A stretch of DNA of 64,000 nucleotides from an uncultured Alphaproteobacteria bacterium (GTDB taxonomy: Bacteria > Pseudomonadota > Alphaproteobacteria > Rhizobiales > Xanthobacteraceae): positions 4,623,010-4,687,009 of the forward strand of contig OY970184.1 in NCBI GenBank assembly GCA_963708125.1. Direction: 5' to 3'. Shown piece by piece: positions 484-40,834 of this stretch; the stretch's first letter is position 1; the number at the start of each line of letters is the position of its first letter. The notes beneath the pieces were generated by a model. It was not told the DNA's origin, ran no database searches, and saw only the letters and a list, made by a program, of their open reading frames with translations. The position numbers and the translations under genes were made by a program.

Positions 484-700
484 CGCCAGCACCCCGGTCG
501 GACCCCTTACGCGCTACATCATTGCCGATCTCTACCAGAAACGCGCACGTCAGAGCGGACTGCCACTCCAGGGTACGTCCTCCTACTGCCTGCGCCATTC
601 ATTTGCGATGCGGCTGCTCGATCGCGGTGTCGGCGTAAAGGTGATCGGTGATCTGCTGGGTCATCATACCCTGGAAAGCACTTGCGTCTATCTTCGGCTA
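484..700 (+). pseudogene. C-terminal fragment of a RitA-like tyrosine recombinase (lineage RIT-X), split by IS630; the last 22 codons resume at 3463..3528
   Basis: The translation ...SYCLRHSFAMRLLDRGVGVKVIGDLLGHHTLESTCVYLRL carries the box II RH and the C-terminal GH..Y motifs. Removing 701-3462 joins VYLRL to EAGALREVALPLPTVREEDAA*, which resembles the C-termini of the other RitA-like genes here. Its stop overlaps the next recombinase start as ATGA at 3525-3528. Confidence 0.75.
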
Positions 701-1088
701 GTACCTCGTCACAGTGATTTTGACTCTTTGATCTCGAGTTTCGGGTAGGCGCGGCCCATTTTGTCACGTGCTTTCTCAGTCGTGAACATCCATCTTATGC
801 GGGCGCGTGATGTATTGCGCTGCCGCTCCCAGGCATCGATTTCGGACACGAGGCGTTCCTTGCTATCGATGCGCCGATCCAGGCACTGACTGCGCAACAC
901 GCCAATTTCGATTTCTACCATGTTCAACCAGCTGGCGTGCTTGGGGACGTAGTGGAACTCCAGATGGTTCAACAGACGTCGGGCCTCGGCAGGCGGGAAG
1001 GCTTGATAGAGTGCTCCGGCCGTGTGGGTGGACAGATTATCCAGCACGACGCGGATGCCCGCCGCTTTGGGAAAGTGAACGTCTACTA

Positions 1089-2364
1089 GTTCATCGTTTC
1101 CAAAGTCCGAATCATATCAGGCGGCTCGATCGAGTTTGTAGGACCATGTGTGGACGACCGGATCCTGGTTGAAGTGGTCCATGGCCGCCGTGATGCGATC
1201 CTTGAGTTCCTGTTTGGATGCGACGCGGATGTGGCGCAACACCGAGCGAGTGAGCTTGGAGAAGAACCCTTCGATGAGATTGAGCCAGGAGCCGTGTGTG
1301 GGCGTGAAGGTGAATTCGAAGCGCCCCACGGGCTGCTGTGCAAGCCAGCCCTTGGTCTCCTTGGAGATGTGTGCCGAATGATTGTCGAGGATCAGCTTGA
1401 TCGCGGTATGGGCCGGATAGGCGGCATCGATCAGCTTGAGGAATTCGATGAATTCGCGACTACGGTGCCGATCCTTGACAAGGGCGTGAACCTGGCCGGT
1501 GAGCAGATCAATGCCGGCCAACAAACTGATCGTGCCGTGGCGCTTGTATTCGTGATCACGCGCAAACGTCGCATGGATGCCAGGCTCGGGCGGCAGGTCC
1601 GGTGCGGTCGTCGCAATCGCCTGAATGCTCGGCTTCTCATCATAGGAAATGATCGCCACCGCGTCGCTGGGTTTTTGCTTGGCTTTTGCCGCAGTCTCTT
1701 TAATGATCTTCACCTCGCGATAGACACACAGGACTTCCGCCATCTTGGCCTTAAAGTCGGGATCACGGCGTTCCAGGTAGTAACGGACCTTGTGAGGCTT
1801 GATCTCCTGCTCGTTGAGGATGATGCACAACGTGCCCTGAGCAAGCTTGCCCAGGCAAACGTGCCCCTCTCGCGGCCCATGTTCGCGCACATGACGGGCG
1901 AGCAGCCGCGTCGTCCACAATTCGTGGGGATAGCCGAGTTCCTTGGCCTTGCGGCAGGCCAGATTCACCACCCAGGCCTTGGCCTCGGCCGTGATTGTCG
2001 GCTTCCGGCCCGGGCGCGGCAGATCGTCCAGCGCCGCCATCGCGCCCAAGGCCAGGGCTCGTTCAACGCAGCGCTGAACGGTCAGATGGTGCACCCCTAT
2101 GGCCCTGGCCACCGCAAAAAAGGATGCGTCCTCCCGGTAGGCGAGCAGCATTCGCGCACGCTCGACCCGGCTCGCGGGTTCCGTCCGCGACCGCGCCACC
2201 GCAGTCAACCTGGCCGCATCCTCCTCACTCAGCGCCAACTCGATCGCATGCCGCCACCCCGCCATGATCTCAATCCCCGCTTCCGAATCAGAGCAGCGAG
2301 GCTACAACCCATGTCAGCAAAAATGAATCCACCCCATATGATGCTTTTCAACGAATCGATGAAC
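1089..2364 (-). mobile_element. IS630-family element (inner, 1,276 bp, apparently intact), nested in the outer IS630 transposase gene
   Basis: Terminal GTTCATCG at 1089-1096 and its reverse complement at 2357-2364. TA lies at 1087-1088 and 2365-2366, and the reconstituted target is CTAG. Confidence 0.9.
1117..2265 (-). CDS. IS630-family transposase (382 aa)
   Basis: Uninterrupted ORF. It has an N-terminal HTH region (ARSRTEPASRVERARMLLAY...) and a C-terminal DDE region (ILDNHSAHISKE...FTPTHGSWLNLIEGFFSKL). Confidence 0.9.
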   Translation of the reverse strand: MAGWRHAIELALSEEDAARLTAVARSRTEPASRVERARMLLAYREDASFFAVARAIGVHHLTVQRCVERALALGAMAALDDLPRPGRKPTITAEAKAWVVNLACRKAKELGYPHELWTTRLLARHVREHGPREGHVCLGKLAQGTLCIILNEQEIKPHKVRYYLERRDPDFKAKMAEVLCVYREVKIIKETAAKAKQKPSDAVAIISYDEKPSIQAIATTAPDLPPEPGIHATFARDHEYKRHGTISLLAGIDLLTGQVHALVKDRHRSREFIEFLKLIDAAYPAHTAIKLILDNHSAHISKETKGWLAQQPVGRFEFTFTPTHGSWLNLIEGFFSKLTRSVLRHIRVASKQELKDRITAAMDHFNQDPVVHTWSYKLDRAA

Positions 2365-3163
2365 TAGTTCCCGCATGCAAGCAGCGAAGTCGATGGCGGT
2401 GCGGCTCTCCGTGACTTTGACCTTGCGCCAGGGGCGATGCACGTCGAGGAAGATAAACAGATTGGCGGTGCCATTACGCTTGTACTCGCAATCGTAGCGC
2501 TCCAGCTGTCCGGGCTTGGCCTTGATCTGCTGACGAACCTCGCCGATGAGCTGGGTCGGGCTTTCGTCGAAACAGACCACCGGGCGCTTCCGATCAGGCT
2601 CTTCAGCATAGAGGTCGAGCACATCTTCCATGCGGGCGACGAATTCACCGTCGACCTGCGGGATGCACCACATGTCCTTGCGCCAGGGCTTGAGCTGGTT
2701 TTCCTGCAGGCGCCGGCGCACGGTCTCGCGGGAGATGTTGTCGTGCTCGGTGAGCCTGACCATTTCATCGGCGAGGAGTTCCAGCGTCCAACGGGCGCGG
2801 CCTTTGGGCGGGCTCGAACAGGCAGTTGCGACCAGCAGGGCCTCCTCTTTGCCGGAGAGCTTGCGGTCGGCACCAGGGCGGGGCTCCTCGCTGAGCGCCG
2901 CCTCCAGGTTGCCGATTACGAAGCGGCGCTTGGTCCGATAGACGGTCGAGCCGCCTACCCCGACGCTCCTCGCGATCTCCTCGTCACTGGCGCCGGCATC
3001 TGCCGCCAGCAGAATCTGCGCGCGCTTGAGCCTGCGTGCCCCATGTTTGCCGCCGCTCAGCAGCGCACTCAGTTGTTCGTGTTCGGATTGGCTCAGTTCG
3101 ACCCGATAGCGTACATTCATCCGTGCCTCCTCGCGTTGAGGCCCGGACGAACAGTTGAGTCGG

Positions 3164-3421
3164 ATGGCCGGAGTGAGTCGCCCTGCAAAAAGCTTCACGC
3201 CCAAGCAGGGCCAGTATCTCGCGTTTATCCACCTCTACACACGCCTGCACCGCCGGCCACCAGCCGAAACCGACATGCAGCAATATTTCCGCGTCAGCCC
3301 ACCCTCGGTTCACCAGATGGTGTTGACGCTTGAGCGGGCAGGCTTCATCCGGAGACAACCACGGACACCCCGCAGCATCGAAGTGCTCGTTGATCCCAAA
3401 CAGCTGCCCGAGTTACTTTGA
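3164..3421 (+). CDS. small winged-helix (LexA/MarR-like) DNA-binding protein encoded inside the outer IS630, divergent from its transposase
   Basis: 85-aa ORF from the ATG at 3164: MAGVSRPAKSFTPKQGQYLAFIHLYTRLHRRPPAETDMQQYFRVSPPSVHQMVLTLERAGFIRRQPRTPRSIEVLV. The pattern resembles a LexA N-terminal or MarR wHTH. It lies between the transposase start (3120) and the right IR (3437-3460). Confidence 0.55.
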   Translation: MAGVSRPAKSFTPKQGQYLAFIHLYTRLHRRPPAETDMQQYFRVSPPSVHQMVLTLERAGFIRRQPRTPRSIEVLVDPKQLPELL

Positions 3422-3524
3422 ATACGGGTCTAACCGGTCAAAACCTGTGTGCAGAGGTACTAGAGGCCGGAGCCCTGCGGGAGGTCGCGCTTCCTCTGCC
3501 GACAGTGCGCGAGGAGGACGCAGC

Positions 3525-4300
3525 ATGAGTGCGACATTAGCGGGCAGCGCGTTAAACCAGGTTGCCGCCCGATATTTGCGGAGACAACGCTCACTCGGGC
3601 GCGCCTATGTTCATGAGGAGCATGTAATAGACGCTTTAGGTCTGTTTCTTGAGAAGCACAGCTGCGCCGATCTCAATCGAGCCATCTTCGAGGCATGGTG
3701 CGCATCACAAGCTCATCTCTCTGCAAACACGCGACGCAATCGCCAGCGTATCGTGCGCAACTTTTGCCTCTATCGGCAGCGCACCGAGCCAACTTGCTTC
3801 GTTCCGGATATCAACCGCCTCCCACATCGGAAGCCGTATGCACCCCCGGTCATCTTCGGGGCGGCTGAGGTCGCCAGGATGTTGGCCGTAGCCGATCGTT
3901 TGGCGCCGACTTCAACCTCACCGCTTCGCCAGCGGTGATGCGACTTGCCGTGGTGCTACTCTACACGGCAGGGCTCCGTCGGGGCGAACTGTTGCGTCTC
4001 ACACTGGCCGATGTCGATCCCCGCGACGGCATTTTGCAGATTCGTGCGTCGAAGTTCCACAAGTCGCGGATCGTCCCGTTGTCGCCAGACGCCTGTCGGG
4101 AGCTGAGGCTGTATCTCCGGAAGCGACTTCGGCCACCTCTGAGCTGTTCAGCGGAAGCCCCCTTGCTTTGCAACAACATGACGCGTGTGCGTGGCTACAC
4201 AGGTAACGGCCTGCGGCAGGGAATCCAACAGCTATTCCGAGCAGCCAATGTTTGCGGCACTGACGGACGAACCCCGCGGGTCCATGATTTTCGTCACTAT
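3525..4300 (+). pseudogene. RitB-like tyrosine recombinase (RIT-X), 5' part; frameshift near 3936; interrupted after HDFRH by RIT copy 1
   Basis: MSATLAGSALNQVAARYLRRQRSLGRAY... continues in the +1 frame as MRLAVVLLYTAGLRRGELLRLTLADVD...KFHKSRIVPL...TPRVHDFRH. The codons CAT GAT TTT CGT CAC occupy 4283-4297. The 3' part resumes at 7725..7934. Confidence 0.8.
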
Positions 4301-4326
4301 GTAGCCCTCCGGACTATGTCGCGTAC
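4295..4326. repeat. RIT terminal inverted repeat, RitC-proximal end
   Basis: CACTATGTAGCCCTCCGGACTATGTCGCGTAC. The reverse complement of 7668-7699 is CACTATGAAGCCCTCCGGACTATGTCGCGTAC, 31/32 identical. The 11-mer GACTATGTCGC occurs at 4312-4322 and inverted at 4393-4403. Confidence 0.9.
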
Positions 4327-4412
4327 TCTGACGAACTCTCCAATTTTGGCTGTAAATATCGGATCGCCGGGCATAGAGGTTCAGTCGATTAGGCGACATA
4401 GTCTTGTCCAGG

Positions 4413-5411
4413 CTATAAGCCGTCCAGAAAGTTCAGCAGCTGATCTCCCGGGCGATAACGACTCGGCGAGCCGTGCGGCGATGAGATTTTGGCGAGGGCC
4501 TGCTCCTTCATCGCGAGTGTTGCTTCCAAATAGATCTGCGTCGTTTCTAGCGATTCATGACCGAGCCACATGGCGATGACCGCGCGGTCGACACCCGCTT
4601 GTAACAATTCCAGCGCCATCGTGTGTCGAAGCAGATGGACGGTGACCCGCTTTCCCTTCAAATAAGGGCACACTCTGGCAGCGTTCGCAGAATGTTTTCT
4701 CAACAGGTGCTGCACGCCATGAACGCTCAAGCGCTCGCCCTTTGCATTTGGAAACAACAGGCGTTTACTGCCTCTTTGCGGCTCAGATAGCCAAGCTCTC
4801 AGTACGGCAACAGTTGGCTTGGCCAATGGCGTACAGCGCTCCTTCCGACCCTTGCCTATGACCCGCACATGAGCGCCGCTTTCAAGCATGAGGTCGTCGC
4901 GTTTGGCGCCGGTGATTTCCGACAAGCGCAGACCCGTTTGGACCGCCGTCAGGATAAAAGCATGATCACGCCTCCCGAACCAGGTGCGACGATCGAGAGC
5001 AGCGAGCAAAGCATCGACTTCTTGACGTATAAGGAAACGGACGAGCGTGCGTGGGAAGCATTTGCTAGGGATAGCAAGCACACGCTGGATCTGTGCCGAG
5101 TGAGTTGGCAGTTCGAAAGCGGCGTAATGAAAGAATGAGTGGATAGCGGTCAGCCGCAGGTTGCAACTGCGCGCGCTCAGACCTTGATTCTTCTCGATCT
5201 GATCGAGAAACGCCACGACCAACGGGGCATCGATCTCTTCGAACCGCAGAGCTGAAGGTGGTTTATGCAACCGCTGCCGAGTGAACTTAAGGAACTGACG
5301 GAAGGTGTCGCGGTAGGAGCTGATGGTGTGCGGACTGACCTGGCGCTGCTGGATCAGACGCTGTGTGAAGAAGCGCTCCAGCAGGGGAGCGAGGCTGAGG
5401 AGGGTAGTCAT
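4413..5411 (-). CDS. tyrosine recombinase, RitC position (333 aa from MTTLLSLAPLLERFF)
   Basis: The full catalytic set is visible (...GLRLSEI..., HLLRHTMALELLQAGVD, WLGHESLETTQIYLE). The ATG at 5411 overlaps the upstream stop as ATGA (5408-5411). Confidence 0.85.
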   Translation of the reverse strand: MTTLLSLAPLLERFFTQRLIQQRQVSPHTISSYRDTFRQFLKFTRQRLHKPPSALRFEEIDAPLVVAFLDQIEKNQGLSARSCNLRLTAIHSFFHYAAFELPTHSAQIQRVLAIPSKCFPRTLVRFLIRQEVDALLAALDRRTWFGRRDHAFILTAVQTGLRLSEITGAKRDDLMLESGAHVRVIGKGRKERCTPLAKPTVAVLRAWLSEPQRGSKRLLFPNAKGERLSVHGVQHLLRKHSANAARVCPYLKGKRVTVHLLRHTMALELLQAGVDRAVIAMWLGHESLETTQIYLEATLAMKEQALAKISSPHGSPSRYRPGDQLLNFLDGL

Positions 5412-6361
5412 GGCCGCCTCTCCCAGCGCTGTTCCAGCCGCGACCTCGCCTCGTGCATCAACTCGGGCAGCGCGCTCAAATACCAAAAGGTATCGCTCCA
5501 GTGGACGTGCCCGAGGTAGGCAGACAGGATCGGCAAGCGCCGCTCGGCATTCTCCCCGGCGCGGTACCACCTCAATAATGTCTTCGAAGCGAACCCATGC
5601 CGCATATCGTGCAGTCGCGGCCCGCGACTATCGGACGGGCCGCGCAGCCCGATTTGACGAGATAAGGCGTAAAACGTTCGGCGAATGTCGCCGCCATCCA
5701 AGCGGTTGCCCCAGCCGGATACGAATAGATAGGAAGAGACCGGCCGGTTCGCCCACGCCTGCTCGCGTCGCGCCATGTAGTCGGCGAGCACTCTGCGGGT
5801 TGAAGCGTGCAACGGAACCAGGCGAGACTTGCCGAACTTAGCTCCCCGAATGGTCAGCACGCCGGATCGAAGGTCAACATCTTGCAGTTCGAGGTTTTGC
5901 GCCTCGCTGACACGCAGCCCCGTGACGCTTAGCAACCCGAACAGGCAATGGTAGGTCCAGGGCCGCAAGCCATTCTTGGCAGGAAGCTTCAGAGCGGCGC
6001 GCAGCAACTCTTTGATCTGTTTGTCGGAGTACATGTAGGGTTGCGCGCGCTTGGGCCGATACGGCAACAGCCCTGCGGCTGGAATTTGCGTACGCGGATC
6101 CATAGCGCTTCGGTGCCGCGCGAAACTTCGCACGCAGCTCAAACGTCGCGCCCACTCGCTCGGCTGCACGTTCGACGGTTGTTTGGCCCAGGCGAGCGCC
6201 AAAGATTGGGTGATGTATGAGGCGCGGCGCTGCTCCATGAACGTGACGAAGGCGAGCAAGCTCTTGCCGGCAGCCTCCAGCTTGTATCCCAAGCTGCGTC
6301 GCATGATCAGATACTCTTGAGCGGCTTGTCGGAGTGTGTTCATCGCACACCTCCCGGTCAC
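5408..6361 (-). CDS. tyrosine recombinase, RitB position (about 311-317 aa)
   Basis: Motifs GLRVSEAQNL, KFGKSRLVPL, LHDMRHGFASKTLLRWY and YLGHVHWSDTFWYL are present. The start is either the GTG at 6361 (GTGA overlap with the upstream stop) or the ATG at 6343. Confidence 0.85.
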   Translation of the reverse strand: MTGRCAMNTLRQAAQEYLIMRRSLGYKLEAAGKSLLAFVTFMEQRRASYITQSLALAWAKQPSNVQPSEWARRLSCVRSFARHRSAMDPRTQIPAAGLLPYRPKRAQPYMYSDKQIKELLRAALKLPAKNGLRPWTYHCLFGLLSVTGLRVSEAQNLELQDVDLRSGVLTIRGAKFGKSRLVPLHASTRRVLADYMARREQAWANRPVSSYLFVSGWGNRLDGGDIRRTFYALSRQIGLRGPSDSRGPRLHDMRHGFASKTLLRWYRAGENAERRLPILSAYLGHVHWSDTFWYLSALPELMHEARSRLEQRWERRP

Positions 6362-7572
6362 GGCAAGGCGAGTGTGCGCAGCGCATTGATGTCAACCTTG
6401 GTGTAGATCTTGGTGGTCTCAGGGCTACGATGCCCCAATAACTCGCCGATCTCGCTCAGCGAGGCGCCATGGCGCAACATCTCGGTAGCCAGTCCATGGC
6501 GAAACTGATGGGCTCCAGTGGTGGGCGCATCAATGCCGGCACGCAAGAGTGCGTGGCGAACAATCGTTCCGACGGCACTGGGACCTAAAAAGCCACGGAT
6601 GGGAGCTTTAACACGCAAAAATACGCGACGACTGGTGCTGCGTGGTCGTCCTTGTTGTAAGTATGCGGCGATTGCCTCGCCGACATCTTTGGGCAAGGGC
6701 AGTTGGACCAGCCGCCCCCCTTTGCCGTGAACGCTCAGGGAACCATCCTTCCAGTCGATATCATCGAGTTCGAGAAACACCACTTCGGTGGCACGCAAAC
6801 CCAACCGTGCAAGCAGCAACAAAATCGCATAGTCGCGTTGTCCGATCGCGGTATGTCGATTGATTTGCGTCAACATGGCGGACTTGATCCGCTGCAATCG
6901 CCCGAGGGATCGACGGCATCGACCAGTTCGCCACAACGGGCACGGCTGCAGCCAGATCCAGCCGGACAAAACCGCGATAGCGCGTGTACTGGAGGAAGGA
7001 ACGCAACGCAGTGGTCAGGAGCTTGGCTGTCTTCAAATGCAGTCGTGGCGTTTGGCGCTGAACAAACCGCACCACGTCTCCGGCACACAATTGCGAGAGC
7101 CTGACAGGTGCGCTGCCAAAGCAATCCTTGAGGAACTCGCGAATAAACCGGACGTAGTTGACAATCGTCGCCGTCGCCAGGGCGCGTTCCTCGCGCAAAT
7201 ACCGCTCATATGCGCGGACGTGTTGTTCGATCGGGCTTGGTCGAAGCTGGCGTATCTCGACCGGGATTAAATTGCCATCACGTAGAAAATCGAGGAGTTG
7301 CTTCAACGCCGCAGCATCACCCTCGCAAATCCGCTGCTGCCGCGCACGATATCGAAGGTACTGGTCGAAATGTCGAGATGAGACGCTGTGCAAACGCACC
7401 GACTTCTTTGCAAGCCATCGGCTAAAACCGACAGCGATCCGAATCCGCCTCCGCAGCGAACACGGCGCGTATCCCTGCCGCTCGCCCACTTCGAAAACGA
7501 GACAATGTAGGGCGCCAGAGGTCCCTCCGGCGCGCGTAACAGAACCACCTGATCGTTGACGATAAACTTCAT
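6358..7572 (-). pseudogene. tyrosine recombinase, RitA position, read in three frames (two frameshifts)
   Basis: Frame 1 gives MKFIVNDQVVLLRAPEGPLAPYIVSF (from 7572). Frame 2 gives ...GERQGYAPCSLRRRIRIAVGFSRWL...VANWSMPSIPRAIAADQ. Frame 3 gives ...SAMLTQINRHTAIGQRDYAILLLLARLGLRATEV...AHQFRHGLATEML...LLGHRSPETTKIYTKVD. The shifts lie near 7480-7500 and 6880-6900. Confidence 0.75.
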
Positions 7573-7667
7573 GGTCGACCCCTTCCCCTGCACAGGTTGA
7601 GAGAAGAGGCGAGACTATGTCGCGACCCACAGACGATTTGCGCCAAGAAACTGAGCCGTAATCGAAA

Positions 7668-7699
7668 GTACGCGACATAGTCCGGAGGGCTTCATAGTG
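7668..7699. repeat. RIT terminal inverted repeat, RitA-proximal end
   Basis: GTACGCGACATAGTCCGGAGGGCTTCATAGTG. The 11-mer GACTATGTCGC occurs at 7613-7623 and inverted at 7672-7682. Confidence 0.9.
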
Positions 7700-7703
7700 A
7701 CGA

Positions 7704-7723
7704 CTATGTCGCCGGCGACATAG
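7704..7723. repeat. 20-bp perfect palindrome CTATGTCGCCGGCGACATAG just outside the RitA-proximal IR of copy 1
   Basis: Read directly from the sequence. It is built from the same CTATGTCGC motif as the RIT sub-terminal 11-mers and is absent next to copy 2. Confidence 0.9.
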
Positions 7724-7724
7724 G

Positions 7725-7934
7725 CGCCACAGCTTCGCAGTCGGATCGCTGTTGCGATGGTACCAGCAAGGCGCGGACGTCCAATCCAATCTGCCGAAGC
7801 TTGCGATGTACATGGGGCACGTCTCAATTGTTTCGACCGCCTACTACCTGCGCTGGATTCCGCAGCTCGCAGCTGCAGCTAGCTATCGGCTCGAGACGCA
7901 CTTCGGCCACCTCATCACCGGAGGTGCCGTATGA
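7725..7934 (+). pseudogene. RitB-like recombinase (RIT-X), 3' part
   Basis: CGC CAC AGC TTC GCA GTC... translates to RHSFAVGSLLRWYQQGADVQSNLPKLAMYMGHVSIVSTAYYLRWIPQL, the expected continuation after the RH box. Its stop overlaps the next gene start as ATGA at 7931-7934. Confidence 0.8.
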
Positions 7935-8704: not shown

Positions 8705-8923
8705 GCGCAGCCGTGCGTTTCTGGCGCGGGCCTCGAAGCGCTTTTGCCGCCGCAGTGTCGCTTCGTGTTCGAGCAGGAGGCCGAGCCATTCGGCATGTTG
8801 CAGGTCGCTTGTGTCTGCGGCCAGTTCGAGTTGGTGGAAGCCCTTGGCCATGCCGTGAAGACCGAGGTCGCGCAACATAGTGAGGGTCGGATGCATCAAC
8901 ATGAGATGTTCTGTCCTTTTCAA
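8705..8923 (-). pseudogene. istB: IstB helper ATPase, N-terminal fragment only
   Basis: MKRTEHLMLMHPTLTMLRDLGLHGMAKGFHQLE...EWLGLLLEHEATLRRQKRFEARARNARLR. Homology is then lost, and no Walker motifs are present. Confidence 0.75.
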
Positions 8924-10464
8924 TGGAAGTAGCCGGGGCCGCGGAGGTTTTTATGCTCGATCACGTTGTTGTTCTCCGGGTCCGCATGTGCTGAAGCGCG
9001 ATCGAGATTATTTTTGAGAAGGGAAGCGATGCTCTTGGAGGTGAACGCGCCGATGGCGAGCGCGCGCGCGGCGACGGCTTCGGCGCGAGCCGGCGCGATG
9101 CCGCGGAAGAGGCGCAGCACGCCGAGGCATGTTCGAAAGCCTTGTTCCGGATGGGGGCGATAGGTGAGTACGGCGATCACCAACGCTTCGGTGTGTGGGC
9201 CGATCGCCCGTGCCCAACGCTCGAAACGCGCTGGCGTCCATTCTGCGTAGCGCCGATGCGCGCTCGGCATGTGGTCGGGATCGGTGCCATGACTGCCGCC
9301 GCCGTAACGCCGCTCATGGAGGGCGACGCGTTGGCCGCGATGGAACACCTCGATGGTTCGGCTGGCGATGCGAAGGTCGACCTCGGCGCTGATCAGCGCA
9401 TGCGGTACCGAGTAGTAGTAGCCGTAGGCTTCGACGTGATAATCGATACCGACGCGCGCCAGCTTCCATTCGGCAAACTGGTAATCAGCTTCCGGCAACG
9501 GCCGAAGCACCGGTCGCTCGACACTTGCAAACAGATCACTGCGGCTGAGCCCGATGCGTCGCATGATGTGACCATTCATGCGCTCAAGAACGAGTGCAAT
9601 AGCTCTATTAGCTTCGGCGAGAGAGAAGAACGTTTGGTGCCGCAGGCGCCCAAGGATGTATGTCTGCGCAAATCTTACGCCGGCCTCCACCTTGGCTTTG
9701 TCACGGGGACGATATGGCCGGGCCGGCAGAATGCCGACACCGTAGTGTTCGGCCATCATGGCATAGCTGCGATTAATCTCAGGATCGTAGAACGACGCCT
9801 TGTGCACGCCGCTCTTGAGATTGTCTGGGATTAGCAGACGTGGCACGCCTTGAAAAAATCGGAACATCTCCACATGCGCCTCGATCCAGTCCGGCAGCGC
9901 TTGTGTCCAAGTTGCTTTGGCAAACGTGTAGTTCGATGCGCCCGCCACGGCGACGAATATCTCGGCGTCGCGTATCTCGCCCGTCTTCGGGTCGACGATC
10001 TCGATCTTCTTGCCGGAGTAGTCGACGAACACTTTGTCGCCGGCGACATGATGCTGGCGCATCACCGGCGACAAACGACGTTCGAACGCGCGGAACAAAT
10101 CACAAAAACGAGAATATGCGTAGCCTGTCGGATTGCTCGCCCGATACTCTTCCCACAGCACCATCAGGTTGACACCTGGCCGCTTGAGCTCGCGCGAAAG
10201 CGCCGCCCAATCCGGTTCGCGGTAACGGCGTCGGCCGGGCTTGATGCCGCTGCGCGCGAACAGCCGTTCGTCCGGAACGTCGTCGGTCCACTCGGTCGGC
10301 AGCGGCCATCTAATTCCAGCCGCATGTGCCCGCCCGAGATTCTCCTGGATTGTGCTGCGAGCCACGCCGAGCGTGCGTGCAATCTCGCGCGCGCTTACGC
10401 CGCCGTGATCTAGTCGTAACATCTGTCGCAATTGACGCATGGTCAGCCCTCTTCTCGCCGGCAT
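8920..10464 (-). CDS. istA: IS21-family IstA transposase
   Basis: N-terminal HTH (SAREIARTLGVARSTIQENL) and a DDE core (FVDYSGKK...EIFVAVAGASNYTFA...). The six-frame ORF runs to 10635, but that lies beyond the inferred IS end, so the start is more likely the ATG at 10464 or 10440. Confidence 0.85.
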   Translation of the reverse strand: MPARRGLTMRQLRQMLRLDHGGVSAREIARTLGVARSTIQENLGRAHAAGIRWPLPTEWTDDVPDERLFARSGIKPGRRRYREPDWAALSRELKRPGVNLMVLWEEYRASNPTGYAYSRFCDLFRAFERRLSPVMRQHHVAGDKVFVDYSGKKIEIVDPKTGEIRDAEIFVAVAGASNYTFAKATWTQALPDWIEAHVEMFRFFQGVPRLLIPDNLKSGVHKASFYDPEINRSYAMMAEHYGVGILPARPYRPRDKAKVEAGVRFAQTYILGRLRHQTFFSLAEANRAIALVLERMNGHIMRRIGLSRSDLFASVERPVLRPLPEADYQFAEWKLARVGIDYHVEAYGYYYSVPHALISAEVDLRIASRTIEVFHRGQRVALHERRYGGGSHGTDPDHMPSAHRRYAEWTPARFERWARAIGPHTEALVIAVLTYRPHPEQGFRTCLGVLRLFRGIAPARAEAVAARALAIGAFTSKSIASLLKNNLDRASAHADPENNNVIEHKNLRGPGYFH

Positions 10465-10550
10465 CGTGCCCCTCCTCGTGTATCGAGAGGCGGCTGATGC
10501 CTGAGTCGCTGACCCGCAGGAAAACGTCGCCGATCGCCGCGCCAAAGTGG

Positions 10551-10588
10551 CCGGCTTCACGTCGGAAGCCCGACCGGCTTCACGTCGG
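10551..10588. repeat. sub-terminal direct repeats at the IS21 end (2 x CCGGCTTCACGTCGG)
   Basis: Identical 15-mers occur at 10551-10565 and 10574-10588. Multiple terminal repeats are typical of IS21-family ends. Confidence 0.7.
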
Positions 10589-10619
10589 TAGACCCGGCCG
10601 GATGAAATCGGAATCCGCA

Positions 10620-10910
10620 GGTCTGACCGGTGCACCAGACGAAAGTGGGACCAAGCGGCGAGAAAAGGGATTGGCGCGAGCAGGCAATGCCCGCGTGCGC
10701 TACGGTATGGTTCAATTGGCCTGGCGTTGGCTCACGCACCAGAAAAACAGCGAGCTCGCGCAATGGTATCAAACGCGAACGGCTGGCGCCAAGCCAGGTC
10801 TGCGCAAAACCATGATTATCGCCTTGGCCCGCAAGCTGCTGATCGCACTGTGGCGTTACGTGACGATTGGCGAAGTGCCGGCCGGTGTGGTGCTGCGTGC
10901 GGCGACATGA
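10620..10910 (+). pseudogene. IS110-family transposase, C-terminal fragment (5' part removed by IS21)
   Basis: ...GLARAGNARVRYGMVQLAWRWLTHQKNSELAQWYQTR...MIIALARKLLIALWRYVTIGEVPAG matches the C-termini of the IS110 copies at 11639.. and 15182... Confidence 0.8.
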
Positions 10911-33726: not shown

Positions 33727-33776
33727 AGCGTTCAAAGGGGATTTAAGGGTGGCGGTCCTCGTCGTGACAGGCGGGG

Positions 33777-34010
33777 CTACGATGTGTCCGATGCTTCAGC
33801 TGTTTTGGCGTCTTTCCAGTTCCACGGCAGCAGCAGGGCCAGGTCGTTCTGCTTGGTCTGTCCTGTCACGATCCGTGTCAGCACGTCGATGAGCCAGGCC
33901 AGCGGATCGATGTCGTTCAGCTTTGCAGTTTGAATCAATGACGCGACAATCGACCAATGCCGCCCCCCGCTGTCCGAACCTGCGAATAGCGCATTCTTTC
34001 TCTTATGCAA
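33777..34010 (-). pseudogene. IS66-family TnpC transposase, C-terminal about 75 codons only
   Basis: (G)RKNALFAGSDSGGRHWSIVASLIQTAKLNDIDPLAWLIDVLTRIV... It is opposite in orientation to the tnpA/tnpB at 32865-33726 and tail-to-tail with them. Confidence 0.75.
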
Positions 34011-34027
34011 AGGTTTGCATAAGAGAA
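33998..34027. repeat. 30-bp palindrome TTCTCTTATGCAAA-GG-TTTGCATAAGAGAA at the RitA-proximal end of lineage RIT-Z
   Basis: Read directly from the sequence. Further TTATGC motifs lie at about 34029, 34046 and 34113, upstream of the recombinase start at 34180. Confidence 0.85.
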
Positions 34028-34179
34028 ATTATGCAGACCTTCAGATTATGCGTAGATGCTTGCTTTCCTGTGTAAATCCGCTCTGCTTTCCAGCGATTTC
34101 CGAAGCAGCGCTGTAGACCCGGCTATGCATAATATCAATCTTCACACCAATCTTCTCGCCCCAGTCCACGGGAGAGGAG

Positions 34180-35273
34180 ATGTTCATGAAGCCCGTCATT
34201 TTACGGCCAGCGCCGCAAGCATGGCTGTCGTCCAGCATTATATCGCCTTACCAAGATCGCTATGTCGCGCGTTTGCGGCAAGATCGATACGCGCACAACG
34301 TGATACGCGTGTATCTTGCAAGCGTCGCCCATTTCGCACGCTGGCTCAGCAAGCAGGATATTTGTCTGCCATCGCTCAGCGAGGCGGTATTGGATCGTTT
34401 CCTCAACGAGCATCTGCCCATCTGCAGTTGTCCTGAGCCAGTACGTCGAACACAGTATGAACTGAGGACAGCGGTCCGCCACCTCCTGAGACTGCTTGAG
34501 ACCGAGGGAGCCATTCGGTCCGCCGACGAGCGGGATGAGCGCAGCACGGAGTTGGCAGCGTTCGATGCCTACATGCGTGATGTCGGGGGCCTGGCGGAGA
34601 CCACACGACGGCAGCGTCGACGGATTGTCGGCGATTTCCTCGCTCATGTATTCGGCACGGACTGTGTCATCGTCGCGAAGATCGACACCGCAGACGTGAG
34701 GCGCTTCGTTCTGGGTGAAGGTCGTGCCTGGGGCGCCGGCGCGGTGCGCGTCGCAGGCAATTCGGTGGGCTGCTATCTGAAGTATCGTCAGATGTGCGGC
34801 GACGACATCGCCAAGCTTCTGCAGGCCATACCGCTGGCGGCACACTGGCGCTTGGCGCCGCTGCCCGAGGTATTGTCACCGGCCGAGATTGACCTGCTTT
34901 TGGCATCGTTCAGTGCAACCCTGCCATCCGGTCGGCGTGCCTATGCCATGGTCAGGTGTGTCACGGACCTTGGCCTCCGCTGCGCGGAAGTGGTCAAGCT
35001 GCGCATCGATGATATCGATTGGCGGAACGGAACCGTCAGGATCGCTCGCTCCAAAACGCATTTCACGGCCTGCCTGCCGCTGCCTAAGCCGACCGGTGAC
35101 GCAATCGCCGACTACCTCGGTACGAGCGGCCGAAGACAGCAAGCCGGGCGATTTTTGTTCGTCATGTTGCGCCCTATGACGTTCCCATACTGCCGGGGGT
35201 GGCCAAGCAGGCCGTCATTGCCGCATTTCGCCGCTGCGGCTGGGATCGTTCCGACCCGCACGTCCTGCGCCAC
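34180..35273 (+). pseudogene. RitA-like tyrosine recombinase (lineage RIT-Z); frameshift near 35165; cut after HVLRH by RIT copy 2
   Basis: MFMKPVILRPAPQAWL...GLRCAEVVKLRIDDIDWRNGTVRIARSKTH... continues in another frame as VAPYDVPILPGVAKQAVIAAFRRCGWDRSDPHVLRH. The codons CAC GTC CTG CGC CAC occupy 35259-35273. Confidence 0.75.
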
Positions 35274-35388
35274 TATGTAGCCCTCCGGACTATGTCGCGT
35301 ACTCTGACGAACTCTCCAATTTTGGCTGTAAATATCGGATCGCCGGGCATAGAGGTTCAGTCGATTAGGCGACATAGTCTTGTCCAGG

Positions 35389-36387
35389 CTATAAGCCGTC
35401 CAGAAAGTTCAGCAGCTGATCTCCCGGGCGATAACGACTCGGCGAGCCGTGCGGCGATGAGATTTTGGCGAGGGCCTGCTCCTTCATCGCGAGTGTTGCT
35501 TCCAAATAGATCTGCGTCGTCTCTAGCGATTCATGACCGAGCCACATGGCGATGACCGCGCGGTCGACACCCGCTTGTAACAATTCCAGCGCCATCGTGT
35601 GTCGAAGCAGATGGACGGTGACCCGCTTTCCCTTCAAATAAGGGCACACTCTGGCAGCGTTCGCAGAATGTTTTCTCAACAGGTGCTGCACGCCATGAAC
35701 GCTCAAGCGCTCGCCCTTTGCATTTGGAAACAACAGGCGTTTACTGCCTCTTTGCGGCTCAGATAGCCAAGCTCTCAGTACGGCAACAGTTGGCTTGGCC
35801 AATGGCGTACAGCGCTCCTTCCGACCCTTGCCTATGACCCGCACATGAGCGCCGCTTTCAAGCATGAGGTCGTCGCGTTTGGCGCCGGTGATTTCCGACA
35901 AGCGCAGACCCGTTTGGACCGCCGTCAGGATAAAAGCATGATCACGCCTCCCGAACCAGGTGCGACGATCGAGAGCAGCGAGCAAAGCATCGACTTCTTG
36001 ACGTATAAGGAAACGGACGAGCGTGCGTGGGAAGCATTTGCTAGGGATAGCAAGCACACGCTGGATCTGTGCCGAGTGAGTTGGCAGTTCGAAAGCGGCG
36101 TAATGAAAGAATGAGTGGATAGCGGTCAGCCGCAGGTTGCAACTGCGCGCGCTCAGACCTTGATTCTTCTCGATCTGATCGAGAAACGCCACGACCAACG
36201 GGGCATCGATCTCTTCGAACCGCAGAGCTGAAGGTGGTTTATGCAACCGCTGCCGAGTGAACTTAAGGAACTGACGGAAGGTGTCGCGGTAGGAGCTGAT
36301 GGTGTGCGGACTGACCTGGCGCTGCTGGATCAGACGCTGTGTGAAGAAGCGCTCCAGCAGGGGAGCGAGGCTGAGGAGGGTAGTCAT
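35389..36387 (-). CDS. tyrosine recombinase, RitC position (copy 2)
   Basis: Its translation is identical to 4413..5411. Confidence 0.85.
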   Translation of the reverse strand: MTTLLSLAPLLERFFTQRLIQQRQVSPHTISSYRDTFRQFLKFTRQRLHKPPSALRFEEIDAPLVVAFLDQIEKNQGLSARSCNLRLTAIHSFFHYAAFELPTHSAQIQRVLAIPSKCFPRTLVRFLIRQEVDALLAALDRRTWFGRRDHAFILTAVQTGLRLSEITGAKRDDLMLESGAHVRVIGKGRKERCTPLAKPTVAVLRAWLSEPQRGSKRLLFPNAKGERLSVHGVQHLLRKHSANAARVCPYLKGKRVTVHLLRHTMALELLQAGVDRAVIAMWLGHESLETTQIYLEATLAMKEQALAKISSPHGSPSRYRPGDQLLNFLDGL

Positions 36388-37337
36388 GGCCGCCTCTCCC
36401 AGCGCTGTTCCAGCCGCGACCTCGCCTCGTGCATCAACTCGGGCAGCGCGCTCAAATACCAAAAGGTATCGCTCCAGTGGACGTGCCCGAGGTAGGCAGA
36501 CAGGATCGGCAAGCGCCGCTCGGCATTCTCCCCGGCGCGGTACCACCTCAATAATGTCTTCGAAGCGAACCCATGCCGCATATCGTGCAGTCGCGGCCCG
36601 CGACTATCGGACGGGCCGCGCAGCCCGATTTGACGAGATAAGGCGTAAAACGTTCGGCGAATGTCGCCGCCATCCAAGCGGTTGCCCCAGCCGGATACGA
36701 ATAGATAGGAAGAGACCGGCCGGTTCGCCCACGCCTGCTCGCGTCGCGCCATGTAGTCGGCGAGCACTCTGCGGGTTGAAGCGTGCAACGGAACCAGGCG
36801 AGACTTGCCGAACTTAGCTCCCCGAATGGTCAGCACGCCGGATCGAAGGTCAACATCTTGCAGTTCGAGGTTTTGCGCCTCGCTGACACGCAGCCCCGTG
36901 ACGCTTAGCAACCCGAACAGGCAATGGTAGGTCCAGGGCCGCAAGCCATTCTTGGCAGGAAGCTTCAGAGCGGCGCGCAGCAACTCTTTGATCTGTTTGT
37001 CGGAGTACATGTAGGGTTGCGCGCGCTTGGGCCGATACGGCAACAGCCCTGCGGCTGGAATTTGCGTACGCGGATCCATAGCGCTTCGGTGCCGCGCGAA
37101 ACTTCGCACGCAGCTCAAACGTCGCGCCCACTCGCTCGGCTGCACGTTCGACGGTTGTTTGGCCCAGGCGAGCGCCAAAGATTGGGTGATGTATGAGGCG
37201 CGGCGCTGCTCCATGAACGTGACGAAGGCGAGCAAGCTCTTGCCGGCAGCCTCCAGCTTGTATCCCAAGCTGCGTCGCATGATCAGATACTCTTGAGCGG
37301 CTTGTCGGAGTGTGTTCATCGCACACCTCCCGGTCAC
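36384..37337 (-). CDS. tyrosine recombinase, RitB position (copy 2)
   Basis: Its translation is identical to 5408..6361. Confidence 0.85.
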   Translation of the reverse strand: MTGRCAMNTLRQAAQEYLIMRRSLGYKLEAAGKSLLAFVTFMEQRRASYITQSLALAWAKQPSNVQPSEWARRLSCVRSFARHRSAMDPRTQIPAAGLLPYRPKRAQPYMYSDKQIKELLRAALKLPAKNGLRPWTYHCLFGLLSVTGLRVSEAQNLELQDVDLRSGVLTIRGAKFGKSRLVPLHASTRRVLADYMARREQAWANRPVSSYLFVSGWGNRLDGGDIRRTFYALSRQIGLRGPSDSRGPRLHDMRHGFASKTLLRWYRAGENAERRLPILSAYLGHVHWSDTFWYLSALPELMHEARSRLEQRWERRP

Positions 37338-38548
37338 GGCAAGGCGAGTGTGCGCAGCGCATTGATGTCAACCTTGGTGTAGATCTTGGTGGTCTCAGGG
37401 CTACGATGCCCCAATAACTCGCCGATCTCGCTCAGCGAGGCGCCATGGCGCAACATCTCGGTAGCCAGTCCATGGCGAAACTGATGGGCTCCAGTGGTGG
37501 GCGCATCAATGCCGGCACGCAAGAGTGCGTGGCGAACAATCGTTCCGACGGCACTGGGACCTAAAAAGCCACGGATGGGAGCTTTAACACGCAAAAATAC
37601 GCGACGACTGGTGCTGCGTGGTCGTCCTTGTTGTAAGTATGCGGCGATTGCCTCGCCGACATCTTTGGGCAAGGGCAGTTGGACCAGCCGCCCCCCTTTG
37701 CCGTGAACGCTCAGGGAACCATCCTTCCAGTCGATATCATCGAGTTCGAGAAACACCACTTCGCTGGCACGCAAACCCAACCGTGCAAGCAGCAACAAAA
37801 TCGCATAGTCGCGTTGTCCGATCGCGGTATGTCGATTGATTTGCGTCAACATGGCGGACTTGATCCGCTGCAATCGCCCGAGGGATCGACGGCATCGACC
37901 AGTTCGCCACAACGGGCACGGCTGCAGCCAGATCCAGCCGGACAAAACCGCGATAGCGCGTGTACTGGAGGAAGGAACGCAACGCAGTGGTCAGGAGCTT
38001 GGCTGTCTTCAAATGCAGTCGTGGCGTTTGGCGCTGAACAAACCGCACCACGTCTCCGGCACACAATTGCGAGAGCCTGACAGGTGCGCTGCCAAAGCAA
38101 TCCTTGAGGAACTCGCGAATAAACCGGACGTAGTTGACAATCGTCGCCGTCGCCAGGGCGCGTTCCTCGCGCAAATACCGCTCATATGCGCGGACGTGTT
38201 GTTCGATCGGGCTTGGTCGAAGCTGGCGTATCTCGACCGGGATTAAATTGCCATCACGTAGAAAATCGAGGAGTTGCTTCAACGCCGCAGCATCACCCTC
38301 GCAAATCCGCTGCTGCCGCGCACGATATCGAAGGTACTGGTCGAAATGTCGAGATGAGACGCTGTGCAAACGCACCGACTTCTTTGCAAGCCATCGGCTA
38401 AAACCGACAGCGATCCGAATCCGCCTCCGCAGCGAACACGGCGCGTATCCCTGCCGCTCGCCCACTTCGAAAACGAGACAATGTAGGGCGCCAGAGGTCC
38501 CTCCGGCGCGCGTAACAGAACCACCTGATCGTTGACGATAAACTTCAT
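37334..38548 (-). pseudogene. tyrosine recombinase, RitA position (copy 2), same two frameshifts as copy 1
   Basis: The three-frame layout is the same as 6358..7572. There is one amino-acid difference (LRASEV versus LRATEV). Confidence 0.75.
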
Positions 38549-38672
38549 GGTCGACCCCTTCCCCTGCACAGGTTGAGAGAAGAGGCGAGACTATGTCGCG
38601 ACCCACAGACGATTTGCGCCAAGAAACTGAGCCGTAATCGAAAGTACGCGACATAGTCCGGAGGGCTTCATA

Positions 38673-39429
38673 GTGGCGTAAGGCGTGTAGACATGGGGCG
38701 CGCCGACCGTCATCCTTGCAACCGATTCCGGTGGTCTCGAGCAGCCTTTTAAATGCATGATCGACATTGTGCTTCCTCACCTGTGTTCCGTCTCGGTTTG
38801 CAAAGAAGGCGGACTCCATCCCTTCCGGCACTGGGCGGTCCGAACGTCGTTCGGCATAAGCCCGCAGGGCATCGGCGAGTTTGCAAGCAACGGGCACGAG
38901 ACAACTCTTGTAGAACTTAGTGTTCCGCACCGTCAGCACTGCGTTCGCAAGGTCCACATCCCTCATGGTTAGATGCAGCGCCTCGCTGGTTCGCAGTCCA
39001 GCTCCGTACAGGATCAGGAGCAGGGGTACGGAAAGTATCGCTATCGAGCCGGACGGCGTGCTTGCGGCTGGTATTGACGGCCTCAAACAGGTGCCGCAGT
39101 TCCTCGCGGGAGTAGATATAAGGTTGCGTCGATGGCGGCTCTCTCGGTTCTTCGTCTGCCGCCGGCAGGGGCGACCGGGTGGCATAACCGCGGCTGATCG
39201 CATACCGGTAAAATCCGGCGAGCGCGCCGTACTTGCCGGCGCGCCATCGGGTGAGTGGACCGGTTCCAGCAAGGAATTGGCGGACCTCTTTCTCCGTCAC
39301 CGCATCGCAGCACACGTGTTCGGGGACGCTTCTACAAAATTGGTACAATGCGCGTGCGGTGGTAATGAATCGCGCACCGTGGGCCCGCCGCCACGCCACA
39401 TAGTGGTCGATCGCGCCGCGGAGAATCAT
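38673..39429 (-). pseudogene. RitB-like tyrosine recombinase (lineage RIT-Y); frameshift near 39090; cut after HALRH by RIT copy 2
   Basis: MILRGAIDHYVAWRRAHGARFITTARALYQF... continues in another frame as LLLILYGAGLRTSEALHLTMRDVD...KFYKSCLVPV...APCLHALRH. The codons occupy 38687-38673 on the minus strand. The ATG overlaps the upstream stop as ATGA at 39426-39429. Confidence 0.75.
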
Positions 39430-40721: not shown

Positions 40722-40834
40722 TTATGTTGCGGAGATTGCGGCGGAGGGACCACTCTCAGTGGAGAATCGGGACCTCCGCAACATAATCCGGTGCGCAACA
40801 TTTTATCGCTTATGTTGCTATCAACATAAGCGAT
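40722..40834. repeat. terminal repeat region of RIT-Y, including the 30-bp palindrome ATCGCTTATGTTG-CTAT-CAACATAAGCGAT (40805-40834)
   Basis: The inverted pair ATTATGTTGCGGAG (40721-40734) and CTCCGCAACATAAT (40774-40787), plus the terminal palindrome. All carry TTATGTTGC. The region lies between the RitA-Y start and the broken IS66 tnpC. Confidence 0.8.

Follow-up and report, generated by a model that had tools for sequence, protein, structure and literature searches.

Lineage-specific terminal palindromes as probable element-borne centres of the RIT attachment region

RIT elements and the palindromes of the window

RIT elements are widespread, occurring in many bacterial phyla, and besides the papers cited below they are reportedly also treated in Van Houdt 2009 and Ricker 2013. 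They have been described as trios of recombinase genes with terminal inverted repeats (IRs), about 3.4 kb long and present in multiple identical copies per genome, and an earlier survey of them yielded no recombinase binding sites that were convincing (PMC3414803). Insertions have been noted singly, in an IS66 tnpA, in the Tn6049 transposase gene and in radC (PMC2864759, PMC3414803). Imperfect palindromic repeats of 47 and 51 bp were reported at RIT ends together with exonuclease-protected DNA lacking circle junctions, and hairpin-structured intermediates were suggested (PMC5737581); a comparison from 2023 lists the target specificity, empty site and movement of RITs as not tested (Table 1 of PMC10214605). 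Here we analyse the RIT ends in a 64,000-nt stretch of contig OY970184.1 (the window), a pile-up of mobile elements that resembles a Bradyrhizobium plasmid or symbiosis island and whose flanks are 88-90% identical to Bradyrhizobium plasmids. Three RIT lineages in it, called RIT-1, RIT-Y and RIT-Z, end in a palindrome, and comparison with related insertions and empty targets makes it likely that these palindromes form the centre of the RIT attachment region and are carried by the element.

The RIT-1 palindrome (7704-7723, CTATGTCGCC/GGCGACATAG) is a perfect 10+10 bp, and it extends imperfectly to 7698-7729 and then on into the IR arm and the target. Those of RIT-Z (33997-34028, TTTCTCTTATGCAAA-GG-TTTGCATAAGAGAAA) and RIT-Y (40804-40835, TATCGCTTATGTTG-CTAT-CAACATAAGCGATA) have arms of 15 and 14 bp. 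Scanning the whole window against 60 dinucleotide-preserving shuffles gave five palindrome centres whose perfect arms measure 10 bp or more (shuffle mean 0.7), which rejects a chance origin; two centres had arms of at least 13 bp, and even one such centre was seen in 3% of shuffles. The RIT-1 arm motif GACTATGTCGC occurs nine times where 0.01 is expected (4312, 4393 on the minus strand, 7613, 7672 on the minus strand, 7702 and four times in a second RIT-1 copy), and the RIT-Y arm motif TTATGTTGC three times where 0.19 is expected (40722, 40778 on the minus strand, 40810). The RIT-Z motif ATTATGC is found at 34028, 34045 and 34127 (minus strand), with a window-wide count not above chance. An earlier note on this DNA had placed the three palindromes here, with arm motifs recurring inside the elements and foreign DNA just outside. 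All three were found, those of RIT-Y and RIT-Z being 1 bp longer at each end than it had drawn them; the motifs do recur, far above expectation for RIT-1 and RIT-Y and at chance level for ATTATGC; and the neighbours are indeed foreign, namely the C-terminal part of RitB-X at copy 1 of RIT-1 and IS66 tnpC fragments at RIT-Y and RIT-Z.

Insertion anatomy across RIT lineages

Seven RIT lineages share a common plan, which consists of an IR arm, 6 bp (O'), a palindromic segment of exactly 20 bp (PAL) and another 6 bp (O), the distance between the two 6-bp segments being exactly 20 bp in all seven. O', PAL and O together make up the 32-bp palindrome, and a complete insertion reads half B of the target gene, the target's O, IR arm, ritCBA or ritABC, IR arm, O', PAL, the element's O and half B'. 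The elements have terminal IRs, a trio of adjacent co-oriented genes and several identical copies per genome, as RITs do; the trios of RIT-Y and RIT-Z are truncated in the window and are complete in their relatives. No small accessory gene (tnpC, srap or ginD) was found, the 3.4-kb elements holding only three recombinase open reading frames (ORFs) between their IRs.

For RIT-Z, the junctions could be compared with an empty target. Its relatives are three Sinorhizobium plasmid insertions with full trios, about 78% identical to the window element; the pSymA and pSymB copies, from a single strain, do not differ from each other (100% identity). Over the 32 bp, the window and the two S. meliloti copies are 100% identical, with a RitA end that reads TTC-TTTCTC-TTATGCAAAGGTTTGCATAA-GAGAAA-TTATGC... 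and a core laid out as TTTGCATAA-GAGAAA-TTATGCAGA; the S. kummerowiae copy has one mismatch, its sole difference lying in O' (GAGGAA). The three Sinorhizobium copies occupy different contexts, and in two of them, as in the window, the element lies in an IS66-family tnpC at the same codons, ...A(I/L)TR/RKN(S/A)LF(A/V)G.... An empty IS66 that is 98.8% identical (locus L050) reads gagtgagTTC-TTTCTC-gtaatcgcc and has no PAL, and its joined flanks are covered by 72 plasmids. In the occupied site, one junction has the sequence ...gagTTC-TTTCTC-TTATGCAAAGG... and the second ...GGCATAA-TTTCTC-gtaatc..., and therefore exactly 6 bp, TTTCTC, are common to the empty site and both junctions. At diverged targets, the 6 bp between IR and target follow the target (TTCCTC, TTAATG) and those adjacent to PAL stay TTTCTC. 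In the opposite reading direction, the PAL-side O is GAGAAA in four RIT-Z copies, with the target's version, GAGGAA or CATTAA, at the other junction. Because only the IR-side copy follows the target, the 6-bp repeats are not a target-site duplication; a true duplication was rejected on the differing pairs GAGGAA/GAGAAA and CATTAA/GAGAAA. For the RIT-Z insertion outside IS66 (L003), no empty site was found among the plasmids searched.

A second empty target is available for RIT-X, which has intact relatives with perfect 27-bp IRs on Bradyrhizobium plasmids. All of these lie in IS21 istB, within the Walker B codons ...LLI-LD-DWG... of three diverged variants of the gene (translation, Pfam), in the order istB N-half, TTGGAT, IR...IR, ATCCAA, TCACGTTGAG/CTCAACGTGA, TTGGAT, istB C-half, and the palindrome is present in 14 Bradyrhizobium plasmids. 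The intact istB of ISFK1 (L049; ...cttctgatt-TTGGAT-gattgggg...) is without PAL and has exactly TTGGAT in common with both junctions; 21 plasmids match the RIT-X probe only from TTGGAT onward. L001 carries PAL at its RitA end, and L005, L007 and L008 carry it at the RitC end, in all four on the side of the istB C-half (B'). In L006, the RIT-X copy lacks a palindrome and lies between two istB N-halves in inverted orientation.

RIT-1 is present in the window as two copies that are 99.9% identical in a BLAST self-comparison (4292-7699 and 35268-38675), with IRs of about 37 bp. All three ORFs match Pfam Phage_integrase, and ritB and ritA overlap by 4 bp. Copy 1 interrupts RitB-X, whose N-terminal half has 83% nucleotide identity to the intact RitB of L001, a B. 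barranii plasmid; the gene resumes as RHSFAVGS... at 7725, after IR-R, TGACGA, the palindrome and GCGCCA, which is the fourth RIT-1 junction. The L001 homologue (...CATGACTTT-CGCCAT-AGCTTTGCG) is uninterrupted and free of the palindrome, so that copy 1 is a simple insertion whose RitA-side end includes the palindrome. At the position of O1, this homologue reads GACTT-TCGCCA-TAGC, and the stretch common to both copy 1 junctions is CGYCAC (4292-4297 and 7725-7730). The core is laid out as GGCTTCATAG-TGACGA-CTATGTCGCC, with arms matching at 8 of 10 positions, and a third, inverted motif lies inward of IR-L at 4393-4403. The palindrome sits just beyond the sequence common to the two copies, and as a caveat to copy 1, it is absent from the RitA end of the 99.9% identical copy 2, both flanks of which are N-terminal halves of recombinase genes reading into the element. 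At three of the four RIT-1 junctions, the element directly follows the His codon of an HxxRH box and the interrupted gene reads into it (RitB-X ...VHDFRH, RitA-Z ...PHVLRH and, on the minus strand, RitB-Y ...LHALRH).

Relatives of RIT-1 and RIT-Y were collected through protein-seeded loci. An exact scan of representative genome contigs, which do not include the host genome, with the 29-mer of the RIT-1 IR gave no match, and in megablast against plasmids RIT-1 matched through its RitB-X flank only and the RIT-Y region did not match. RIT-1 relatives occur in eight metagenome-assembled genomes (MAGs) of very different phyla, with RitB at 67-85% amino-acid identity, and every readable junction follows HxxRH of a recombinase gene (upstream halves HTLRH, HSLRH, HTFRH twice, HLLRH and HGMRH). 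The RIT-1 PAL is identical in a Burkholderiales MAG (L010), and the equivalent place is taken by a 20-bp palindrome in L009, at the RitA end as in L010, and in L011, L014 and L015, at the RitC end. In these other members of the family the outer 7 bp are kept (CTATGTC/GACATAG or CTATGCC/GGCATAG) and the central 6 bp vary freely, the family's centres being GTGGGA, TCTGAA, GCCGAC and GATGTC. PAL is thus found three times at the RitA end and three times at the RitC end, and it touches the downstream half B' in the five flanks that can be read (that of L015 is unreadable).

RIT-Y relatives, with full trios and IRs of 89-92 bp, were found in a gammaproteobacterial MAG with seven copies, in alphaproteobacterial MAGs, in Mesorhizobium and in others. 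Their order is tnpC ...DHLPL, TAYCGN (the Tyr-Arg codons), TTATGTT-GANNTC-AACATAA, the reverse complement of O, IR...IR, TAYCGN and tnpC Q(S/A)QI.... The window copy and five genome relatives have PAL at the RitA end, five have it at the RitC end, and it adjoins the LPLYR half (B) wherever the flank is readable, including two metagenome contigs and two loci with an IS91-type insert. The PAL-side O is TATCGC in six copies of one genome, with TACCGC at the other junction, and the intact LPLYRQ site in L002 (CCGCTC-TACCGG-CAG) is without PAL. One M. loti copy has GTATG arms and an O changed on both sides, such that the 32-bp dyad is preserved.

In two independent RIT-Y relatives, a 2.6-kb element lies exactly between PAL and IR, in the inner 6-bp spacer (L028, 3250-5855; L032, 3227-5854), and it is inverted in L031. 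Its products are an IS91-family transposase and a tyrosine recombinase of XerC/integron-like type. Possibly, the inner core of a RIT is in its turn a target for another element.

Three further lineages complete the plan. A distant RIT-1-like lineage reads TGCGCC-CTATGCCGATGTCGGCATAG-GGCGCA-CTATGCC... and lies in an IS66 tnpC at ...QVCLAH/LLRD; a Pseudomonas plasmid RIT reads CCGCCA-TTATGTGCTCCAACACATAA-TGGCGG-TTATGTTGCGG and is inserted at ...LVCDDFAG/GYKAGF; and a Paraburkholderia RIT reads TTATGGGCTC/GAGCCCATAA-AAATGA-GTATGG.... The RIT-1 family inserts at HxxRH of tyrosine-recombinase genes, including those of other RITs, RIT-X at the Walker B motif of IstB, and RIT-Y, RIT-Z and two further lineages at four different motifs of IS66-family transposases. 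These junctions, with target motifs confirmed by translation and Pfam, show that every RIT lineage has its own conserved codon motif as target, in a gene of some other mobile element. The end that bears PAL may be that of RitA or RitC in the RIT-1, RIT-X and RIT-Y lineages; what is fixed is the half of the target gene that it touches. Copies without PAL between like target halves in inverted orientation also recur (window 35267-38679, L006, L012, L040 and L055); in L006, the flanks are inverted IS21 halves, each with a full istA and about 0.5 kb of istB.

With RIT ends compared across genomes, the terminal palindromes proved to be conserved in relatives and absent from uninterrupted homologues, namely intact RitB (L001), istB (L049), IS66 (L050) and the LPLYRQ site (L002). 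The earlier note was right that the palindromes belong to the elements, since the RIT-Z 32 bp are conserved across genera at 100% where the elements themselves are about 78% identical, and right that the arms co-evolve with the recombinase lineage, as arm sequence changes by lineage and resembles that of the IR arms. Its proposal that they are recombination sites holds insofar as they sit at the recombination junction, but their centre is not the crossover, and the exchange it envisaged across a short centre is contradicted by boundaries at the outer 6 bp in both empty-site comparisons. Their place on the RitA side is true of all three in the window, but not of the RIT-1, RIT-X and RIT-Y lineages at large, where the RitC end is also used, nor of copy 2, which has none. 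A general YTATG motif did not survive, being missing from the RIT-X arm TCACGTTGAG and replaced by GTATG in one RIT-Y relative. As for an outer arm that is a hybrid with IS66, the outermost 6 bp do coincide with target codons, but the PAL-side O is element-borne. Because that O is constant within a lineage and the other O follows the target, the palindrome is wholly element-borne and not a half-target hybrid.

A candidate attachment-site model and its rivals

The most plausible reading of PAL is a back-to-back pair of 10-bp half-sites, each of which would face its own 6-bp spacer, one in an intact inner core (IR arm-O'-PAL arm) and one in the outer junction (PAL arm-O-target). The crossover is placed beside the palindrome and not at its centre because the 6-bp O is all that the two near-identical empty sites have in common with the junctions. 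The unit IR arm-O-PAL arm has the form of a core site, with inverted half-sites around a 6-bp spacer and identity to the partner confined to that spacer (L050, L049). In the model we propose, the Rit tyrosine recombinases would exchange strands within or at the edge of O, between an element core of PAL arm, O and IR arm and a target that resembles this core mainly in O. After insertion, the element would still contain an intact second core in mirror image (IR arm-O'-PAL arm). Circularised via O, the element would have the joint IR-O'-PAL-O-IR, one long palindrome with two mirror-image cores, and use of either core would give the same product with the body in either orientation and PAL on a fixed target side; the orientation of the body would be free because the two cores mirror each other. 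Suitable targets would always be available, since O and the neighbouring bases match a conserved codon motif of mobile-element genes. Reaction of the retained inner core with a second target, or homologous recombination between copies, could yield a PAL-less copy between like halves. The constant PAL-side O and the target-type O opposite, in the few informative cases, hint at a strand-biased reaction, which might be exchange at the IR-proximal edge of O, a one-strand exchange resolved by replication, or the use of a hairpin-folded single strand.

Applied to the window, the model suggests the following history. RIT-Y would have entered LPLYR/Q and RIT-Z TR/KN of an IS66 tnpC, the two elements facing each other; the tnpC fragments beside them share the minus strand and are compatible with a single gene. 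RIT-1 would then have entered an HxxRH site in a RIT-Y or RIT-Z gene, and a deletion to the other element's HxxRH site, via the RIT-1 inner core or homologous recombination between RIT-1 copies, would have taken out PAL, the middle of tnpC and, from each of the two elements, the distal rit genes, fusing RitB-Y, RIT-1 copy 2 and RitA-Z within a single IS66 tnpC. This proposed deletion would be the reason why copy 2 is without PAL and lies between two N-terminal halves.

Four other explanations were weighed. The one put forward in the earlier note, in which the arms of a single core are bound and strands are exchanged across its short centre, draws on the fact that the 32 bp parse as 13-bp arms around a 6-bp centre, in proportions like those of dif or loxP, and on arms that co-vary with the lineage. 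We consider it improbable, because the boundaries between element and target lie at the outer 6 bp, the centre is in no case shared with the target and is free to vary inside a lineage, and the half-sites have opposite polarities relative to the centre and to O. That the palindrome is an operator or terminator of ritA, or a part of the target gene, would fit the position of all three window palindromes upstream of a ritA-type gene, yet in relatives PAL is roughly as frequent beyond ritC as before ritA, the stem is not followed by a T-run, the position is tied to target polarity and not to rit gene polarity, and intact target genes lack the palindrome. Such an origin is essentially refuted by PAL beyond ritC and by the palindrome-free targets, and we give it hardly any credence. 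Scarcely more credible is a replicated hairpin telomere, in which a linear element with covalently closed ends would undergo a telomere-resolvase-like reaction. In its favour are the palindromic ends and intermediates that are exonuclease-resistant and were suggested to be hairpin-structured (PMC5737581). It was rejected because it needs a perfect central dyad and most centres (AAGGTT, GATAGC, GACATC, GTGGGA and TCTGAA) are not self-complementary, and because element DNA is present on one side of PAL only, with target on the other.

A folded single strand is a more serious candidate, though we still regard it as doubtful. Here IR-L would pair with IR-R, O with O' and the PAL arms with each other to form one long hairpin with the PAL centre at its tip; one strand would be exchanged with the target at the IR-proximal edge of the 6-bp segment, and replication would complete the insertion. 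This yields exactly the order B-O-IR...IR-O'-PAL-O-B', and it would account for the mirror-image second core, for a centre that varies freely as a loop, and for one O staying with the element on the PAL side and the other with the target. Folding predictions give stable DNA hairpins (-11.8 to -15.8 kcal/mol, z-scores -2.7 to -7.4), RitA, RitB and RitC are among the 'simple' Xer- and integron-like recombinases (PMC8138268), and exonuclease-protected RIT DNA without circle junctions has led others to suggest hairpin-structured intermediates (PMC5737581). On the other side, O and O' are not always complementary (4/6 in copy 1, 3/6 in L009, 4/6 in L014), the asymmetry of O comes from only about four clearly informative insertions, and a double-stranded circle with heterology resolved by replication predicts the same products. 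We regard as equally doubtful the wider reading that RITs integrate via a hairpin-folded or otherwise strand-biased substrate and would then be, as a class, parasites of other mobile elements. On that reading, the invariant codon motifs to which they home would be those of genes for transposases, helper ATPases and recombinases, the catalytic HxxRH box of rival RITs among them.

Several observations weigh against the attachment-site model preferred here. The predicted circle junction IR-O-PAL-O-IR was not found in metagenome contigs, a null result that is uninformative because the control pattern gave only two normal junctions. The inner O' is sometimes the reverse complement of the target-side O (copy 1, L008), for which simple integration offers no explanation. 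No PAL was recognisable in RITs associated with a toprim-domain gene (L053-L055) or in a Megaera element (L057). An orphan PAL between two like target halves was found neither for RIT-X among plasmids nor for RIT-Y among genomes, and therefore deletion with loss of the reciprocal circle and homologous recombination between copies are equally possible. Finally, relative to the intact 412-aa RitA of L009, the ritA of RIT-1 has two frameshifts, near 7441-7477 and 6872-6876, which are common to both window copies (6358-7572 and 37334-38548, minus strand). Because ritA is frameshifted in both, the window copies of RIT-1 are probably non-autonomous, or were duplicated after ritA had decayed.

Set beside dif, loxP and the lambda attP core, the RIT site is alike in its inverted half-sites of about 10 bp, its 6-bp spacer and the restriction of partner identity to the spacer. 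It differs in having two mirror-image cores back to back, one of which is consumed at integration, and in a target that resembles the element mostly in the 6 bp alone. Points in common with the group of Tn554, SE and GInt elements and the coupling sequences of Tn916/CTnDOT are more than one tyrosine recombinase per transposon, site-specific targets, a tolerance of 6-bp junction heterology and an asymmetric fate of the 6 bp (PMC10214605). RITs lack a fourth small protein such as TnpC, Srap or GinD; in contrast to all of these elements, their PAL-side 6 bp appears to be permanently element-borne rather than taken from the donor flank, and a mirror-image palindrome has not been described for those elements. 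Integron attC and CTX-phage attP(+) are similar in a possibly intrastrand-paired site, in products that fit one-strand exchange plus replication, and in recombinases of the same broad 'simple' group, whereas RIT sites are without identified extrahelical bases or bulges and their folding is predicted from sequence. Like Tn7 (glmS), homing endonucleases and group II introns, RITs use as target a conserved coding motif, which does not drift easily and is thereby sure to be present in many hosts, but these targets are genes of other mobile elements (IS66, IS21, tyrosine recombinases, those of other RITs among them), and the gene is destroyed. Since the literature reports no convincing binding sites and lists target specificity as not tested, the 6+20+6 anatomy, the location of the crossover, the PAL-side rule and the codon-motif targets appear to be new for a known class of element, with overlap with Ricker 2013 possible.

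The model provides substrates (32 bp and about 50 bp) and 20-30-bp targets (IS66 LPLYRQ, IstB LLILDD) for direct test, and it predicts which 6 bp recombine, which copy of O the element keeps and that the body is able to invert. It would also give a rationale for three recombinases, as the half-sites are of three kinds or more (IR arm, PAL arm and target arms). The picture that emerges is of elements that systematically destroy IS66, IS21 and other recombinase genes, a point that matters in annotating the scrambled mobile-element graveyards of rhizobial symbiosis plasmids and islands. They are also possible sources of programmable, motif-homing recombinases.

Features of the window and minor observations

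Table 1. RIT elements, their 6-bp segments and palindromes, and the interrupted genes (window coordinates).
Feature	Coordinates	Strand	Remarks
RitB-X N-terminal half	3330-4296	+	Target gene of copy 1, ends ...VHDFRH; internal frameshift near 3935; Pfam Phage_integrase
O1 = TCGTCA	4291-4296	+	6-bp segment joining target to IR-L; read from sequence
IR-L of RIT-1 copy 1 (RitC side)	4297-4327	+	Arm CTATGTAGCC; second direct motif GACTATGTCGC at 4312
ritC (4413-5570), ritB (5408-6361), ritA (6358-7572) of copy 1	4413-7572	-	Pfam; tblastn with L009 RitA
IR-R of RIT-1 copy 1 (RitA side)	7667-7697	+	Terminal arm GGCTTCATAG; internal motif 7613-7623
O2' = TGACGA	7698-7703	+	Inner 6-bp spacer; exact reverse complement of O1
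RIT-1 PAL CTATGTCGCC/GGCGACATAG	7704-7723	.	Best read as two back-to-back half-sites
O3 = GCGCCA	7724-7729	+	Outer 6 bp, PAL to target; intact RitB-X homology restarts at 7725
RitB-X C-terminal half RHSFAVGSLLRWYQQG...GHV	7725-7934	+	88% nucleotide identity to L001 from 6001
IS66 tnpC fragment, downstream half, begins (RK)NALFAGSDSGGRHW	33730-33996	-	RIT-Z target half B'; lower boundary approximate
RIT-Z outer O = TTTCTC	33997-34002	+	Constant in 4 copies; matches empty site L050
RIT-Z PAL TTATGCAAAGGTTTGCATAA	34003-34022	.	100% conserved in L002, L003, L004
RIT-Z inner O' = GAGAAA (34023-34028), IR arm TTATGCAGA	34023-34051	+	Second direct motif 34045, inverted motif 34127-34133
RitA-Z, cut after ...PHVLRH by RIT-1 copy 2	34180-35273	+	Pfam; translation
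RIT-1 copy 2, without PAL	35267-38679	-	O GCGCCA (35267-35272), body, O TGGCGT (38674-38679)
RitB-Y N-terminal part, frameshifted, cut after ...LHALRH	38673-39429	-	ORF map; translation
RitA-Y, 412 aa, intact	39426-40664	-	Pfam; 73-81% amino-acid identity to relatives
RIT-Y IR arm GCGCAACATTT (40793-40803), inner O' = TATCGC (40804-40809)	40793-40809	+	Internal motifs 40722, 40778
RIT-Y PAL TTATGTTGCTATCAACATAA	40810-40829	.	Same position, same 7-bp outer arms in 15 relatives
RIT-Y outer O = GCGATA	40830-40835	+	Reverse complement TATCGC = Tyr-Arg codons of tnpC LPLYR
IS66 tnpC upstream half, ends ...YCDHLPL(YR)	40836-41427	-	RIT-Y target half B; Pfam zf-IS66, LZ_Tnp_IS66

RitB-Y and the IS66 tnpC half that adjoins RIT-Y are both decaying genes. 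The RitB-Y ORF at 38917-39429 is in a different frame from the HALRH codons, and the tnpC half has a 1-nt frameshift about 30 nt from the junction (...LLAHVLVSN / YCDHLPLYR; 40836-40870).

Toprim-associated RITs were seen on Aminobacter, Haematobacter and Sagittula plasmids (L053-L055), directly downstream of a toprim-domain gene in three genera, and in L055 toprim genes stand on both sides in inverted orientation. No IR was resolved in these three or in L057. The toprim-associated lineage may represent a different target type or a domesticated trio.

The decayed RIT-X region of the window is bracketed by a near-perfect inverted duplication of 483 bp (1-483 and 9839-10321, 99.8-100% identical). 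Its right arm lies within an IS21-family transposase ORF (8920-10635), in an arrangement that resembles the symmetric IS21-RIT-IS21 structure of L006. RitA-X is interrupted by a 2.8-kb insert (700-3463), whose ORFs at 1150-2367 and 2437-3333 gave no Pfam or NCBIfam match; kinship with the IS91-like insert of L028 was rejected, there being no similarity and no family match. The ORFs may be spurious, in high-GC DNA, or the insert may be an unidentified element. Downstream of the IS21/RIT-X region there are diverged direct repeats of 0.3-0.9 kb, 80-83% identical (13880-14815/15476-16401 and 11644-11951/15165-15473). A perfect 22-bp palindrome, ACTTGACCAAC/GTTGGTCAAGT (45841-45862), lies about 30 bp upstream of the start of a minus-strand gene (ATG 45813, GGAGG ribosome-binding site) and is probably a repressor operator that is unrelated to RITs.

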